From contig NZ_CP074694.1 of the NCBI RefSeq assembly GCF_018398935.1, positions 2,220,001-2,252,000 on the forward strand: a stretch of 32,000 nucleotides of DNA, written 5' to 3'. Shown here one piece after another: positions 25,677 through 31,960 of this stretch. Below the pieces are notes generated by a model. It had not been told where the DNA came from, did not search any database, and saw only the letters and a list, made by a program, of their open reading frames with translations. This DNA comes from Telmatocola sphagniphila. GTDB taxonomy: Bacteria > Planctomycetota > Planctomycetia > Gemmatales > Gemmataceae. Both the position numbers and the translations under genes were made by a program. Position 1 is the stretch's first letter, and every line of letters begins with the position of its first letter.

Positions 25677-26305
25677 CCCCGCTGCATGTCGCGTCTGCAT
25701 CCGATTGGAAATCTCATGGACAGGAGCAAATGGCAGTGCAGGTGCAGGCGGCAATGATTCTTGCCGAACATGGTGGCGATTTGAATGCGGTAGCATGTTA
25801 TCGAGGAATCGTCGACGCGACACCACTATTTTGTGCCTGCTGGACTTCTGAAAACCTCGCGCTTGTCCGCTGGCTACTGGGGCACGGAGCCGCAGCCACT
25901 AATCAATGCCTCCCGGCTGCGCTGGGACATCTTCAACGTCACAGGCGAGCGGCATACGACATTGCCGAGAGCCTGCTCGCCTATGGACTGGCCATCGATT
26001 ACATATCTGGCACTGGACGAACACTTCTGCAAGCGTTTGCTCATCAAGGGGTCCATCGGACCGTCGCGTGGTTGATCGCGCACGGCGCAGATGTCAACGC
26101 ACAGAGTTCCAGCGGCCGAACAGCGGTCCATTATGCGGCCGAACGGAACACGGGGCCGAAGACGTTGAAACTGCTCGTTGATGCGGGAGCCGATCTGGTG
26201 GCCCGCGACTCAGCTGGTCGCACGCCCCTGGAGATTGCCAAACTCAACGAAAAACCGCGCCTCGTCGAGTGGATTGCGAGTCGGGTTCGCGTGAAGCGGC
26301 GGTGA
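25652..26305 (+). CDS. ankyrin-repeat protein
   Basis: ANK repeat signatures: TPLHVAS, ATPLFCACWTSENLALVRWLLGHGA, GRTLLQAFAHQGVHRTVAWLIAHGADVNA, GRTAVHYAAERN...LKLLVDAGADL and GRTPLEIA. The frame is open from 25565; I prefer the ATG at 25652. Confidence 0.8.
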   Translation: MEPASSHVTPLHVASASDWKSHGQEQMAVQVQAAMILAEHGGDLNAVACYRGIVDATPLFCACWTSENLALVRWLLGHGAAATNQCLPAALGHLQRHRRAAYDIAESLLAYGLAIDYISGTGRTLLQAFAHQGVHRTVAWLIAHGADVNAQSSSGRTAVHYAAERNTGPKTLKLLVDAGADLVARDSAGRTPLEIAKLNEKPRLVEWIASRVRVKRR

Positions 26306-26375
26306 TTTGCGCACCGAGAGTGATCCTCCCCCCATATTATTTCAAGGCGGGAAGTTCGGAGCACGTTGAATCAGG

Positions 26376-26426
26376 GATAGCCCTAATTTCTGTTCCTGTC
26401 AGACGACCGATCGTGCGGCGAACGTC
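26376..26426. repeat. 51-bp direct repeat, copy A (partner 31496-31546)
   Basis: GATAGCCCTAATTTCTGTTCCTGTCAGACGACCGATCGTGCGGCGAACGTC matches 31496-31546 at 48/51 positions in the same orientation. Confidence 0.9.
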
Positions 26427-26647
26427 GCAGGTCGATTCCAAAGTACAACATCTATCGTTCATTTTTAATTATTGATAACTGAAGACGACACTTCAAGTTT
26501 CCAACTTGGTTGGAGAATCCCTTCTACTCAAAATCAAACTCTTTCAACGATACCACGCACAAAACTCATCTCTTGAAAAGAGTCAAATCCATTTTCAAAA
26601 AAAGTTCACTTACGGGGAGAAGCAAATTTAAAGATATAACAGGTAAA

Positions 26648-27670
26648 CTAATCAAATGTAATCAATGTCTTCGAATCAAGTGTAATCAATGTCTTCGAAA
26701 CGCGGAACCCATTAATGTAGTTCCGCCGAGTCGGTTGATAGATGACACGGCTAGCGGAACGCGCAAGCGATGGTTGACCGCTCCAGGAACCCCCGCGCAG
26801 TACGCGATTGACAGCACTACTGATTTCTAGTACCTTATCTTCTTGATCTTCGACAACTTCTTGAACCGTTGAATAATTCGCATAACGTTCCATGCACCAA
26901 CTAAATAGATTCCCATGCCCGTCAAAGAGGCCGAAATCGTTCGGCTTCTTCTCTCCATAAGGCCAACTCTGCTCGTTCGAATTCTTCTGATACCAACCGT
27001 AATTGTCTAATAACGCCACCGCCTCACCAAAACTGTAACGGCTCTGCGTACCTGCTCGGGTTGCGCATTCGGCTTCCGCTTCACTCGGCAGACGATAACC
27101 CGTCAACGATAAATATTTAGGCTTCAACTTCGTTACCAACCCGGCCGCGTTCGTCTCGTAACACCATTGATCTTGCGGTATTCCTTCCCGCTTCGATAAC
27201 CAATTGCAGTAGGCCGCAGCCTCGTACCAAGCCACCCCATGTATAGGACAATCCGGGGTTGGCGAAACCTTGACGAGGTAAGCGGGCGGAGTATGGCCTG
27301 CATTGAACCGATGAAACTCTTCCAACGTGACATGCCGAGACATGATCGCGAAGGTCCGGCTAATACGAACGCGGTGAGCAAACTCCACCGAAAACTTCAT
27401 CGAATCCGAATCCGTCGAACCCATTGTGAATTCCTGGGGTCCGGGGACGACGACCATCGTCTGGCCCTCGCTTGTTACGTACCAGTTTCTTGCTTGAAGT
27501 TCACGCTTTAGCGTGACTTTCTCGCGTCCCTCCTTATCTGCTGTCCATAACTTCGTCTGCTCCGCGATCCAGTCTTTCTGATTCCACCTTCGTAACGTCC
27601 ACTCCGCCGCCGCGTGCATACCGGCATCGGGATGATCCCGGTAGATCGCTTTCAACTCTTCGATTGAACC
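26648..27670 (-). pseudogene. C-terminal FGE-sulfatase-fold portion of a Ser/Thr kinase gene split by an IS element
   Basis: FGE-fold motifs are present: MVVVPGPQEFTMGS, HGVAWYEAAAYCNWLS, GYRLPSEAEAECATRAG, GNLFSWC and RVLRGGSWSGQPSLARSASR...GFRV. There is no ATG; the track start is a TTG at 27655. The frame joins the kinase frame exactly once the IS and one TA are removed. Confidence 0.8.
26651..26698. repeat. 24-bp tandem duplication at the 3' end of the FGE-fold reading frame
   Basis: ATCAAATGTAATCAATGTCTTCGA followed by ATCAAGTGTAATCAATGTCTTCGA (23/24 identical). On the minus strand this encodes SKTLITLD-SKTLITFD. Confidence 0.9.
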
Positions 27671-27672
27671 TA

Positions 27673-28478
27673 GTGTAGTGCCTCACACAGAAGGTGTTTT
27701 ATCCAAGGTAGCTCTAGCCCGGCGGACTTTCTCCAGAATAGCCTCGGCTTTGGCGGTCCACTGGAATCCCTTTCCTGTGTTATTGTGATGATCGATGTAG
27801 CCTTCAATCCCCTGGATTAATTGCGGCACAAATCGAAATGTGCCTCGACGCAGTCGTTTGTCTGTTAAGTCGCGAAACCAGCGTTCCACCAGATTCATCC
27901 AGGAACTGCTCGTGGGGGTGAAATGCATGTGGAATCGAGGATGCCGGGCGAGCCAACGCTGAACTTTGGGATGCTTGTACGTGGCAGGTTTGTCCACGAT
28001 CAAATGCAAGTCCAAGGCCGGATCGGTGGCAGCATCGATCCGTTTGAGAAACTTGATCCATTCCTGGTGTCGATGTCGTGGCATGCATTCGCCAATTACT
28101 ACGCCTTCCGCCACGTTCAAAGCCGCGAAGAGAGTGGTGGTGCCATGACCCATGTAATCGTGAGTCAGAGTGCCGCAACGGCCGGGCACCCGCCAAACGC
28201 AGCTTCGCTAATCGGGTCCGCCAGCGCCACTGTGGGTTTCGACGTGCCGCACTGCTGAGCAATGTCCTTGTTCCGTACACCTGCGGCCGCCGCGAGTATG
28301 ATCTTCGCCCGCAGGACCAGCTGAGCGGGAGTACTTCGTCCCCGAGACCAAGAAGTCAACGTTTGTCGTTCCTCGTCAGAAAGTAAGATTGGCAGCGCGA
28401 CTTTCATGGGTTTTCTCCTTCTCTATAGAGTAACTACAAAAAGGAGCTAAAAGTAACGCTATTTCTGAGACACTACAC
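27673..28478 (-). mobile_element. internally deleted, non-autonomous IS630 (Tc1/mariner-superfamily) insertion sequence
   Basis: Terminal inverted repeats GTGTAGTGCCTCACA (27673..) and GTGTAGTGTCTCAGA (reverse complement of ..28478). TA flanks both ends (27671-27672 and 28479-28480). Transposase remnants lie inside. At 806 bp it is shorter than the roughly 1.1-1.2 kb I expect for IS630 members. Confidence 0.85.
27683..28407 (-). pseudogene. IS630-family DDE transposase, frameshifted and internally deleted
   Basis: The N-terminal HTH piece (MKVALPILLSDEERQTLTSWSRGRSTPAQLVLRAKIILAAAAGVRNKDIAQQCGTSKPTV) is in one frame. [14 protein letters not shown] is in a second frame. The C-terminal catalytic part ([12 protein letters not shown]...[13 protein letters not shown]...[17 protein letters not shown]) is in a third. 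The stretch of about 100 aa that should carry the first catalytic Asp is missing. Confidence 0.8.
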
Positions 28479-30695
28479 TAGTTCGCCCAAACCATACTCT
28501 CCCAAAATCAAGACCAATGCCCTTTTCGCCGAAATATCCGCTTCTGTTTTGAATTGAGAATGGATTAGATTGAAATCTACCCCATAAGGCTTCAGTCGAT
28601 GGATGATCCAACTCCGAACCGTCGGATCGGGCGAGAATTTTAATAAAGACCATACTTCATTCGCTTTTCCTAAACGAATCAGCGAAATGGCCGCTATCGC
28701 TTGACGACTCGCCAGGCGATCCCGTTCGGCTTCCGGTGTCTTATCATCTGTTTTCTTGGCCAACTCGGCCTGCAAGGCATCGATCGCTTTCGAAGTGTGC
28801 TTGGCCAAGACGGGATAAAGGGTTACAAAGGCCGCTTCGTCTGCATCGAGAATTAGATCGGCCACGAATGTCGGATCGTCTTTGGCGTATTCCGATAGAA
28901 AGTTGACGGCTTGTGTGCGCTGACTTTCCCGCCGTTTGCTATCCCGGTATATAGCGGCCAATGCGGGTTGAAGATCTTTGGCAACGGGGCGGAACGCCTC
29001 CAACCAGGGCGCGAAGTGAAAAGAGTTTTCTGCAACGAGCATCTCCGCAATCTTATGTGCCTCCACCTTTCCGTTGGCTGCCTCCAAGGCGGCGACCCGC
29101 AAATTGTTCGGTATCTTCGGCACAGTGTCCACGTATGGTTTCAACGCTTCCACAAAAACGGAAACTTCGGCGGGAGCCGCTTCGGGCAATCGATCCGCGA
29201 TATACCTTTTCATCGATTCATCCCGAGATAACAATGCGAGCGAAGCATTTAATTTTCGCCTGGGATCCTCGCCGTCTGCCGCTTGTTTCAAGATTGAATC
29301 GGCCCACAAGGGTTTGAGATCGAGTAATAATTTCGGTAGCTCCGAAGTGGGCGATTCCAGCAAACGTTCCGCATAGGCTCGCGCCTGGGTACGAGTATAA
29401 CCGATTATGCTGAGGATAATCCCACTAAACAAGGCTAGCGAGATCATACTCGCGGCGATAACGGAGGTTTTGTTTCGATTCAAAAATTTCTTGAGCCGAT
29501 AGGTGGTGCTAGGAGGACAGGCCATTACCGCTTGCCCTCCTAGATAACGCTGAATATCCATACCGAAACTATTGGCCGTTTCGTAGCGCCGATTGCGGTC
29601 TTTTTCGAGTGACTTCATTGCAATCCAATCGAGATCGCCTCGCATTAACCTCGTCAATTTTGCAGGATCGGTCTTTCGCTGAGCGGAGATACTCGGCAAG
29701 GCGACATCCGTTGAAAGCCTTGTACTGGGTTTCGGCGGTTCCTGTTCGCGGACTATACGCAGCATCTCCAATATCGCCTGTTCTTTAAAGTTCTTGCGGT
29801 TTAACGGCGTGCTACCAGTCAGAAGTTCGTAAAGGAGTACTCCTAACGAGTAGATGTCGCTGCGAGTGTCAATATCTTGGTTGTTTAATTCCGCTTGCTC
29901 AGGAGACATGTATTCAACCGTGCCAATGACGGCACCGAACTCGGTATACATCGTTTTGTCGGTTAGTCGCTGTCCCGTTGCCTTAGCCACTCCAAAGTCG
30001 ATCACCTTAACCACTGGATGGCCGTCGTAGGGAGCCACGAGGACGTTCGATGGTTTGATGTCTCGGTGTATGATCCCTTTTTGATGCGCGTGCTGAATGG
30101 CCTGGCAGACCGCGACAAAAAGTTCCAGGCGTTGTCTGGGTTGCAACCGATGTTCGTCGCAATATTTTGTGATGGAAGTGCCCTTAACCAATTCCATCAC
30201 AAAATAGGGTCGTTGACCGACGATTCCGGCATCGTAGATACGAGCGATATTAGGATGATCCATCAGGGCCAATGCCTGCCGCTCGGCTTCGAAGCGCGCC
30301 ACGACTTTTGCAGAATCCATCCCCGCCTTGACGAGTTTTATGGCGATCATTCGGCGGACCGGTTCCTGCTGCTCTGCCATCCAAACCGTACCCATGCCCC
30401 CTTCGCCTATTTTTTGAAGCAGCTTATAGGGACCAATCAGAGTGCCGGGCTTATCGTCGGGTTCGAATTTCAGAGTGTCGGGATCGATCCATTTGCCAGC
30501 GGGCATGTCGACTGTAGCCTCGAAGCGGGCAACAGGCTGTTCCAGGAAGCTCTTTTCTTGCTGGTGCAGACGCAGCAGTTCTGCGATTTGCTTTCGCAAT
30601 TCGGCATTGTTGCCGCAAGCCCCTTCCAGGTAGGCTTCGCGTTCAGCTTCGGTTTTCTTTTTCAAGGCTGCGGCGAAAATGAGGCTTTCATTCAT
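28473..30695 (-). CDS. transmembrane Ser/Thr protein kinase, C-terminally truncated by the IS insertion (stop codon supplied by the IS end)
   Basis: ATG at 30695 (MNESLIFAAAL..). Hanks kinase motifs are present: GEGGMGTVW, IAIKLVK, HRDIKPSNVLV, DFGVAK and YMSPEQ. TM helix VIAASMISLALFSGIILSIIGY. The last codons, ..GEL-V-stop, run across the TA junction into the IS inverted repeat. Confidence 0.9.
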   Translation of the reverse strand: MNESLIFAAALKKKTEAEREAYLEGACGNNAELRKQIAELLRLHQQEKSFLEQPVARFEATVDMPAGKWIDPDTLKFEPDDKPGTLIGPYKLLQKIGEGGMGTVWMAEQQEPVRRMIAIKLVKAGMDSAKVVARFEAERQALALMDHPNIARIYDAGIVGQRPYFVMELVKGTSITKYCDEHRLQPRQRLELFVAVCQAIQHAHQKGIIHRDIKPSNVLVAPYDGHPVVKVIDFGVAKATGQRLTDKTMYTEFGAVIGTVEYMSPEQAELNNQDIDTRSDIYSLGVLLYELLTGSTPLNRKNFKEQAILEMLRIVREQEPPKPSTRLSTDVALPSISAQRKTDPAKLTRLMRGDLDWIAMKSLEKDRNRRYETANSFGMDIQRYLGGQAVMACPPSTTYRLKKFLNRNKTSVIAASMISLALFSGIILSIIGYTRTQARAYAERLLESPTSELPKLLLDLKPLWADSILKQAADGEDPRRKLNASLALLSRDESMKRYIADRLPEAAPAEVSVFVEALKPYVDTVPKIPNNLRVAALEAANGKVEAHKIAEMLVAENSFHFAPWLEAFRPVAKDLQPALAAIYRDSKRRESQRTQAVNFLSEYAKDDPTFVADLILDADEAAFVTLYPVLAKHTSKAIDALQAELAKKTDDKTPEAERDRLASRQAIAAISLIRLGKANEVWSLLKFSPDPTVRSWIIHRLKPYGVDFNLIHSQFKTEADISAKRALVLILGEYGLGELV

Positions 30696-30789
30696 GGTAG
30701 ACTTCCTTATTCCTGGAGTCGCCAATTCATTTTTTCACTCTAATCCCAATGCGCCAAATCCGGGGAAAACCCCCGGAAGAATTTAGTAA

Positions 30790-31350
30790 TTATTTCGCTT
30801 CGCGCTGCATGTCCCGTTTCAACCACACTTTAGCGTAAGTCCAATCTTCCTCGGCGGTTGATAAAGAGATGCTTAAAATCGCGGCGGCTTCAGCCAAAGT
30901 GCAGCCAGCAAAATAACGCAGTTTTACCAGTTGGGATTTTCGAAACGATTTGGCTTCTAGTCTTTCCAGACTCTCATTCAAAGCGAGTATGTCAATCGCT
31001 TCGACCGGGGCTTTGATCGAAGGTTCGTGTTGCTCAAGTTCCTTCTGTTGAAGTTGGCCGCCTCGCTTCAGGCGACTTTTGCTACGAGCTTTTTCGACGA
31101 GAATCCTCCGCATCGCTTCCGCAGCGGCAGCAAAGAAATGACCGCGTCCTTCAAAGTGCTGGTCGCCGACCAATCTGAGATACGCTTCGTGTACTAAAGC
31201 CGTGGCTTCCAAGGTCTGCCCGGGCGTTTCCAACGCCATTCTTGCAGCCGCGAGTTTCCGAAGTTCTTCGTAAACCAGGGGGAGCAACTCCGCTGCCGCC
31301 TGATTATTTCCACGATGAGCCGCCACCAGTAACTGAGTCAGATCGGACAT
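30790..31350 (-). CDS. ECF sigma factor of the PF07638 / TIGR02999-like type (kinase-associated ECF)
   Basis: MSDLTQLLVAAHRGNNQAAAELLPLVYEELRKLAAARMALETPGQTLEATALVHEAYLRLVG...GHFFAAAAEAMRRILVEKAR...VKLRYFAGCTLAEAAAILSISLSTAEEDWTYAKVWL matches this family's characteristic sequence along its whole length. It lies directly upstream of the kinase. Confidence 0.9.
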   Translation of the reverse strand: MSDLTQLLVAAHRGNNQAAAELLPLVYEELRKLAAARMALETPGQTLEATALVHEAYLRLVGDQHFEGRGHFFAAAAEAMRRILVEKARSKSRLKRGGQLQQKELEQHEPSIKAPVEAIDILALNESLERLEAKSFRKSQLVKLRYFAGCTLAEAAAILSISLSTAEEDWTYAKVWLKRDMQREAK

Positions 31351-31495
31351 GAAGGAATAGTGTATTTCCCTCTCGATAAGCTGCCAATCAGATGCCGGTT
31401 TAAGGTGCTCCGGTCACATAGGCCAGTTGGAGATTTTTCGAATTAAAAAAATCTCCTTCCCCCGGCCACATCTCTCTCCTACCGGGTAATTAACA

Positions 31496-31546
31496 GATAG
31501 CCCTATTTTCTGTCCCCGTCAGACGACCGATCGTGCGGCGAACGTC
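31496..31546. repeat. 51-bp direct repeat, copy B (partner 26376-26426)
   Basis: GATAGCCCTATTTTCTGTCCCCGTCAGACGACCGATCGTGCGGCGAACGTC. It lies between the stop of the 31592 gene and the ECF sigma promoter region. Confidence 0.9.
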
Positions 31547-31591
31547 AGATCGGCGAAGCTCATAGCAACAATTAGGACCTGGCGACCTGCT

Positions 31592-31960
31592 TCATTTGAC
31601 GACTTCCAGCTGGTTCAAATCATCAATGACGATCTCATACTCCACAAGATGTCCGTAAATATTGTCGTCATGTTTGGAAATTGACCCCGTTACCCGGATC
31701 GTTTTCCCTTCGAAGTGCTTCTCGATGTTCTGAATTCCCGCCCGGTTGAATTGCCGAACCGCCTTGGCCGTCAGGACCGCCCCGAAACGCTGCATGATGC
31801 CGTCTATTGGAGCTTTTGAACGAAGCCCGACATCCTCCAGGCCGCGGCCCTTCTCGAACACCGCTTCGTCGCGAGCCTGATTGAACAGTTTCTCGTTCGT
31901 TCTGGTCACTGACTCGACTTGGAATTCGACAGGGGGCTGGCTCTTATTGAATTCCTTCAT
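31592..31960 (-). CDS. hypothetical protein (may extend upstream beyond the window)
   Basis: 122-aa ORF from the ATG at 31960. The same frame stays open to base 32000, so the true start may lie outside the window. No motif recognised. Confidence 0.45.
   Translation of the reverse strand: MKEFNKSQPPVEFQVESVTRTNEKLFNQARDEAVFEKGRGLEDVGLRSKAPIDGIMQRFGAVLTAKAVRQFNRAGIQNIEKHFEGKTIRVTGSISKHDDNIYGHLVEYEIVIDDLNQLEVVK

Follow-up and report, generated by a model that had tools for sequence, protein, structure and literature searches.

Two open reading frames (ORFs) of the planctomycete Telmatocola sphagniphila, separated by an 806-bp element of the IS630 family, are very probably the halves of a single receptor-kinase gene that was cut in two by the insertion of that element downstream of a kinase-linked extracytoplasmic function (ECF) sigma factor gene. 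They lie in the window analyzed here, a stretch of 32,000 nucleotides (positions 2,220,001 to 2,252,000 of contig NZ_CP074694.1, RefSeq assembly GCF_018398935.1) from a genome assembled as one closed contig of 6.59 Mb. Positions are those of the window unless stated to be genomic. The features that define the interrupted gene, including the orphan piece with a domain of the formylglycine-generating enzyme (FGE) fold, are as follows.

28473–30695, minus strand: truncated Ser/Thr kinase ORF of 740 aa, gene-derived to 28479 and then made up of bases 28473–28478 of the insertion sequence (IS)
28479–28480, no strand: TA target-site duplication, copy 1, within cTA
27673–28478, minus strand: non-autonomous IS630-family element of 806 bp with an internal deletion, oriented like the kinase gene
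27671–27672, no strand: TA target-site duplication, copy 2, within TAg
26648–27670, minus strand: orphan C-terminal piece (340 codons and a stop) carrying the final helices of the solenoid, then a linker and the FGE-fold domain

Insertion Site and Restored Reading Frame

The kinase ORF begins at the ATG at position 30695 on the minus strand and terminates with ...GGT TTG GGC GAA CTA GTG TAG. The GTG and TAG codons that close it are the opening bases of the inverted repeat of the element, the partner of which, ...CTACAC, ends at position 27673. A preliminary description of the locus had already attributed the final valine and the stop codon to the terminal repeat, and a minus-strand reading of the junction bore this out. 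The flanks of the element are cTA and TAg, which corresponds to a CTAG site with its TA duplicated.

Scripted removal of positions 27673–28480 (808 nt) produced a frame of 3240 nt that contains a sole, terminal stop codon and encodes 1079 aa. The join suggested previously, in which loss of 27673–28478 together with one TA connects the kinase to the FGE-fold ORF, was thus reproduced, and its coordinates and arithmetic (4048 − 808 = 3240 nt, equivalent to 1080 codons) all hold. The IS-free junction reads ...GGCGAACTAGGTTCAATC... at the nucleotide level; in the restored protein, ..LILGEYGLGEL is followed directly by GSIEELKAIYRDHPDAGMHAAAEW.. (in a shorter excerpt, ..GEYGLGEL by GSIEELKAIYRDHPD..). 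Neither of the two gene pieces carries a stop codon or a frameshift, and the TA duplication is intact. The statement that the gene was split exactly in frame is correct for the excision, which restores the frame, but not for the 808-nt insertion itself, whose length is not divisible by three. No ATG is available in the downstream piece, where a TTG at position 27655 is the earliest possible start.

Homologs Spanning the Junction

A search with the junction-spanning residues 560–860 of the restored protein returned 55 foreign proteins (P0002–P0056), most of which cover the whole region in one polypeptide. Their identity is mostly 33–43%, and many of them carry both Pkinase and FGE-sulfatase domains. 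The top homologs come from Gemmataceae and other Planctomycetota. A lack of full-length homologs had been named beforehand as an outcome that would speak against a single ancestral gene; colinear full-length proteins were found instead. P0044 (1145 aa) is 39% identical across residues 87–1067, with a single 6-residue gap at the junction, and two related genomes contain open frames of 1056 and 1096 aa with 37–38% identity over about 1000 residues. An uninterrupted paralog is also present at 2.07 Mb in the same genome.

In an alignment of 14 sequences, the motif D-[IVL]-[ST]-x-RRALVLxLGE[YF] precedes the junction and the motif L..[LM][YF]R..PD[AP]G[LM]HAAAEW.LR.W follows it, and the loop between the two varies in length. 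Genome-wide, all 13 copies of the element with complete ends, including the one in the kinase gene, are flanked by cTA...TAg. Because these flanks are the same in every copy, and because 13 single polypeptides align across the junction, the arrangement is not due to chance.

Three observations weigh against this interpretation. First, the restored junction loop is 6–7 residues shorter than in most homologs; a deletion accompanying the insertion is nonetheless unlikely, given the variable length of this loop and the intact CTAG/TA signature. Second, neither an ortholog above about 50% identity nor an empty site was found among 5.8 billion proteins, GTDB species genomes, and JGI metagenomes. The best foreign match in a word-indexed protein search had 43% identity; the genomes of forty relatives, none of the same genus, gave 50% at most; GTDB species contigs and metagenome contigs reached at most 45% and 43% identity, respectively; and an exact 25-mer across the restored junction had 0 matches in the JGI metagenomes. 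The ancestral state is therefore reconstructed rather than observed. Third, no such sigma factor gene adjoins the nearest full-length homologs from other genomes: none was found beside the closest of them (L026–L031), nor beside P0044, which lies on a contig too short to judge. The link to the sigma factor thus does not travel with the sensor cassette.

The Inserted IS630-Family Element

Two remnant ORFs were recognized in the element.

28165–28407, minus strand: remnant ORF 1, 80 aa, helix-turn-helix (HTH; PF13384 HTH_23)
27683–28189, minus strand: remnant ORF 2, 168 aa, C-terminal DDE_3 (PF13358, profile positions 32–145 only)

The element begins with GTGTAGTGTCTCA... and finishes with ...TGAGGCACTACAC. 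Its inverted repeats, located at 28464–28478 and 27673–27687, both read GTGTAGTG(T/C)CTCA, and the arms including the flanks measure 16 nt and are 94% complementary. The remnant ORFs lie in different frames, and alignment of the copies showed that ORF 1 is frameshifted by the loss of 2 bp (GC) relative to an 808-bp sister copy. An internal deletion of about 360 bp, with its junction near position 28188, is bounded by a GGT microhomology. The segment lost encodes ..LSCDEKSQ.. with the first catalytic Asp, leaving the DDE triad incomplete. Judged from its sequence, the 806-bp copy is a defective, non-autonomous member of its family.

Its relatives in the genome comprise eleven full-length copies of 1165–1168 bp, plus fragments. 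Six copies of 1168 bp contain a single intact ORF for a transposase of 361 aa, and the transposase of a full-length sibling matches the NF033545 equivalog of the IS630 family with 250 bits against a cut-off of 100. The sister deletion copy (808 bp, genome positions 2182386–2183193) is located 65 kb away and differs by one GC dinucleotide, with zero substitutions. The occurrence of two copies of a defective element at different CTAG sites indicates that they were moved by a transposase acting in trans.

These features place the element alongside IS630 of Shigella sonnei and the IS630/Tc1/mariner group, with which it shares an HTH plus DDE_3 transposase, short inverted repeats, and insertion at the TA within CTAG with duplication of the TA, the IS630 target being reported as such (PMC2577343 Table 1, citing Tenzen and Ohtsubo 1991). 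Unlike the full-length copies of about 1.17 kb in this genome, the copy in the kinase gene has only 806 bp, is internally deleted, and has broken frames, resembling a passenger of the miniature inverted-repeat transposable element (MITE) type that is mobilized in trans. On the basis of the intact duplication, the near-identical sister copy, and the two gene pieces, which are free of stops and frameshifts, we consider the insertion to be recent.

Two further observations concern other copies. The cTA/TAg site of the 808-bp sister copy lies about 1.1 kb upstream of another sigma factor and kinase module, and no frame of at least 120 aa is interrupted by that copy. In the 1165–1167-bp copies (for example, at genome positions 1049092–1050256, 1419406–1420572, and 5487857–5489023), the transposase is split into two ORFs of about 200 aa (140 aa in the 1165-bp copy) and 171 aa, with the break near the poly-A run CGCAAAAAAGC. 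Among the shorter copies, this run was read in the 1165-bp copy alone, and there it has one A fewer than in the 1168-bp copies. The split may reflect either decay or a slippery site.

Domain Architecture of the Interrupted Kinase

The domains assigned to the two gene pieces are listed below, with residues numbered in the restored protein.

29736–30428, minus strand: Hanks-type kinase domain, residues 90–320 (Pfam)
29397–29465, minus strand: single transmembrane (TM) helix, residues ~411–433 (hydropathy)
28479–29390, minus strand: predicted extracytoplasmic all-alpha HEAT/ARM-like solenoid, residues 436–739, retained in the truncated product
26699–27463, minus strand: FGE-sulfatase-fold domain, predicted non-catalytic type, residues 809–1063 (PF03781)

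The kinase domain matched PF00069 Pkinase (E 1.7e-46, 159 bits), and the catalytic motifs GxGxxG (GEGGMG), AIK, HRD (HRDIKPSN), DFG, and SPE are all present in the translation. Ahead of it lies an N-terminal extension of about 85–89 aa, comparable to that known in PknS, a kinase partner of an ECF43 sigma factor (PMC13147305). The TM helix is the sole 19-residue window with a Kyte-Doolittle value above 1.6 in the 1079-aa protein. As it is single and flanked on the kinase side by the basic stretch RLKKFLNRNK, the C-terminal ~645 residues are predicted to be extracytoplasmic.

The restored helical array extends over roughly 370 aa, of which about 300 are kept in the truncated kinase. An AlphaFold2 model of residues 436–740 (20 homologs) had a mean predicted local distance difference test score (pLDDT) of 93.3 and about 20 helices. 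When this model was submitted to Foldseek, only HEAT/ARM solenoids were retrieved (AP-2, SF3B1, beta-catenin, importins, and PP2A-A), with E values of 1e-3 or worse; given such weak matches, the solenoid should be read as a fold class and not as a specific relative of any of these proteins. The element entered the array between two of its helices, in the loop that follows helix KRALVLILGE.

The FGE-sulfatase domain matched PF03781 with an E value of 1.7e-36 over profile positions 3–253 of 255. Catalytic FGE/SUMF1 proteins rely on a cysteine pair in the C-terminal RGGS...C...C region (C336/C341 in the human enzyme); no Cys follows RGGSW in the domain examined here, whose sequence reads RGGSWSGQPSLARSASRVIYQP. 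The closest solved structures were T. denticola TvpA (2Y3C), PorK/GldK, and PvdO (5HHA), with E values from 4e-23 to 1e-9, and no true FGE enzyme was found among the solved-structure matches at E 1e-5 or better. Taken together, the missing Cys and the absence of an FGE enzyme from these matches argue for an FGE fold rather than an FGE enzyme, and the orphan domain is predicted to be of the binding type. TvpA, PorK/GldK, and PvdO occur in stand-alone or lipoprotein contexts, whereas the domain described here is part of a kinase sensor. Neither a signal peptide nor a TM segment was found in the orphan C-terminal piece, the hydropathy scan covering the latter. At the extreme 3' end of the FGE frame, a 24-bp tandem duplication with one mismatch (26650–26697) extends the protein past the conserved GFRV end by the tail ..SKTLITLDSKTLITFD.

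The Pfam assignments, the hydropathy scan, and the AlphaFold2 model thus agree with the ancestral protein of about 1079 aa that had been envisaged, composed of a kinase domain, a TM helix, a helical region, and an FGE-fold domain. A truncated kinase and a startless orphan FGE piece are indeed what the locus now contains, but the kinase does not lose its whole sensor part: about 300 aa of the array are still present, with the last helices and the FGE domain missing.

This architecture has precedents. Among the domains combined with planctomycetal Ser/Thr kinases, the sulfatase-modifying-enzyme (SUMF1/FGE) domain ranks third in frequency, and it is mostly periplasmic in proteins with a single TM helix (PMC11032199). 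The restored protein has the same domain order and predicted topology as those kinases, and homologs with this layout include P0014 (1132 aa), P0039 (1047 aa), P0044, and longer relatives of about 1500 aa. Many relatives additionally have, between the kinase domain and the TM helix, a STAND NTPase module that is absent from the interrupted gene. In other planctomycetes, the cassette formed by the solenoid and the FGE fold is joined to varied cytoplasmic heads (homologs P0002–P0056), namely a kinase alone, a kinase with a STAND NTPase (PF20703/PF13401), a TIR-like domain (PF13676), or no recognized domain.

The ECF Sigma Factor and Its Paralogous Modules

The gene preceding the kinase is as follows.

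30790–31350, minus strand: ECF sigma factor gene, kinase-associated type, 186 aa (PF07638 and TIGR02999)

Its product matched PF07638 Sigma70_ECF over the full length (E 2e-54) and TIGR02999 with 188 bits (cut-off 126). The start of the kinase gene lies 94 nt beyond the sigma stop codon. By inspection, region sigma2.2 reads E48-A-T50-A-LVHEAY where other ECF sigma factors have DxxD, so that the acidic E48 is retained; the corresponding motif is QTTA in ECF43 and QATE in EcfK (PMC13147305). Kinase-associated ECF factors are known from group ECF43 and from the planctomycetal groups ECF59-62 (PMC7826278), and assignment of the present sigma factor to either is equally possible from its sequence.

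Seven sigma factor and kinase modules were identified in the genome, between 1.84 and 2.28 Mb. Their kinases are 51–79% identical over the N-terminal extension, the kinase domain, and the TM helix, and differ in their extracytoplasmic parts. The recurrence of such modules, together with the literature on ECF43 (PMC13147305, PMC7826278), lends support to the proposal that the interrupted kinase is the partner of the adjacent sigma factor. The pairs EcfP-PknT of Vibrio parahaemolyticus and EcfK-PknS of Xanthomonas citri have the same arrangement, with a sigma factor gene followed by that of a receptor kinase with a single TM helix, and they share the N-terminal kinase extension, an extracytoplasmic sensor, and a Thr-bearing sigma2.2 region. 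Here, in contrast, the predicted sensor combines a HEAT-like solenoid with an FGE fold, and the kinase gene is broken.

The closest module is found at 2.094 Mb (genome positions 2091124–2094963, with the sigma factor gene at 2094386–2094943), 156 kb away. The sigma factor proteins encoded at the two loci are identical, and the DNA is about 99% identical across window positions 31370–30700, i.e., the sigma factor gene, the spacer, and the first kinase codons. Identity then falls to 70–80% through the kinase domain and ends at the TM helix. The kinase of this twin locus is encoded in an open frame of 1084 aa and has a sensor made of tetratricopeptide repeats (TPR), as does PknS. This identity pattern suggests gene conversion of the sigma factor gene combined with modular exchange of the sensors. 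Because the sigma factor is identical at both loci, the two kinases probably act on the same protein, and the pathway is probably partly redundant.

Three further sigma-linked kinases (at 1.836, 1.981, and 2.180 Mb) are encoded in short frames of 449, 388, and 876 aa, the last of which has an odd tail; a quick tblastn at the 2.18 Mb kinase gave a match to the N-terminal part only. These kinases may also be truncated, which fits the erosion of a redundant family.

With regard to the surroundings of the locus, a 51-bp direct repeat (94% identical) at window positions 26376–26426 and 31496–31546 brackets the block formed by the sigma factor, the kinase, and the FGE piece. Four more copies of this repeat occur on the same strand between 1.99 and 2.21 Mb of the genome, none of them adjoining a sigma factor gene. 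A scan for promoters and terminators in the region 26300–31700 gave numbers at the level of shuffled sequences (6 and 8, against expectations of 4.8 and 6.6, respectively), and no foreign-island signal was detected in the GC composition around the gene.

Consequences of the Insertion and Alternative Explanations

We propose that the gene was disrupted by insertion of the element, along the cut-and-paste route usual in its family, into the TA of a CTAG site located in a loop of the sensor array. The transposase would have been supplied in trans, potentially by the six genomic copies with an intact 361-aa ORF. The inverted repeat provides the kinase frame with its premature stop. The resulting 740-aa product would be expected to sit in the membrane, retaining about 300 aa of solenoid but not the FGE module, and the FGE piece, if translated at all, would lack an export signal and stay inactive in the cytoplasm. 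In X. citri, PknS versions deprived of their periplasmic domain were phosphorylated in vivo even when no cue was given, but they did not complement (PMC13147305). By analogy, the truncated kinase may autophosphorylate without a cue and may no longer transmit a signal, a signal-blind kinase being the most likely outcome. The twin sigma factor and kinase locus would then provide redundancy.

It is conceivable, though unlikely, that the insertion arose in laboratory culture or in a subpopulation, and that the natural population or part of the culture keeps an intact gene of 1079 codons. The apparent youth of the insertion (no substitutions relative to the sister copy over 806 bp, intact duplication, undecayed pieces) and the six potentially active transposase copies in the genome are compatible with such an event. 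No direct evidence opposes it; the element sits in a single closed-contig assembly, and a culture origin would alter only the time and place of the insertion and not its nature.

A more far-reaching possibility, which we regard as distinctly unlikely, is that the signal-blind but catalytically intact kinase constitutively (or never) phosphorylates the sigma factor shared with the TPR-sensor kinase, and that this state was selected during cultivation or is reversible by excision. If this were true, the strain would represent a natural sensor-deletion experiment on a circuit of two kinases and one sigma factor. More generally, the truncated kinase could be a selected functional allele, for example one that acts constitutively on the shared sigma factor, or a reversible switch operated by precise excision; this, too, is highly improbable. 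The kinase domain, the TM helix, and most of the solenoid are intact, the identical sigma factor is encoded at a second locus, and precise loss of the element with one TA would restore the gene. The autophosphorylation of truncated PknS without a cue also points in this direction, but the same truncations did not complement (PMC13147305). Furthermore, no sign of selection was seen, the insertion being too young to judge and shared by no relatives, and several other kinases of the paralogous family look truncated, which suggests decay under redundancy. As for a switch, cut-and-paste excision of IS630/Tc1 elements normally leaves footprints.

Finally, the idea that a kinase gene and a gene for a stand-alone FGE-fold protein were originally separate, with the element landing between them, is barely credible: stand-alone proteins of 600–1000 aa with helical and FGE parts and no kinase do exist among the homologs, but this idea is effectively refuted by the IS-derived stop of the kinase frame, which has none of its own, by the lack of an ATG, a signal peptide, and a TM segment in the downstream piece, by the exact join of the frames, and by homology to single polypeptides across the junction.

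A single gene recently disrupted by an IS is the neutral reading of the locus; the earlier term "natural domain-deletion allele" would imply a function.

Significance

The phenomenon itself is a routine IS disruption, since IS630 insertions, kinase-linked ECF sigma factors, and kinase-FGE architectures have all been described previously; the points added are the non-autonomy of the element and the duplicated sigma factor with swapped sensors. For annotation, the ORFs 28473–30695 and 26648–27655 should be treated as one IS-disrupted gene and not as a short kinase and a "formylglycine-generating enzyme", and the 806-bp element as a non-autonomous IS630 derivative. With regard to the biology of these bacteria, the disrupted copy shows mobile elements eroding or rewiring redundant signaling families whose members have swapped their sensors.

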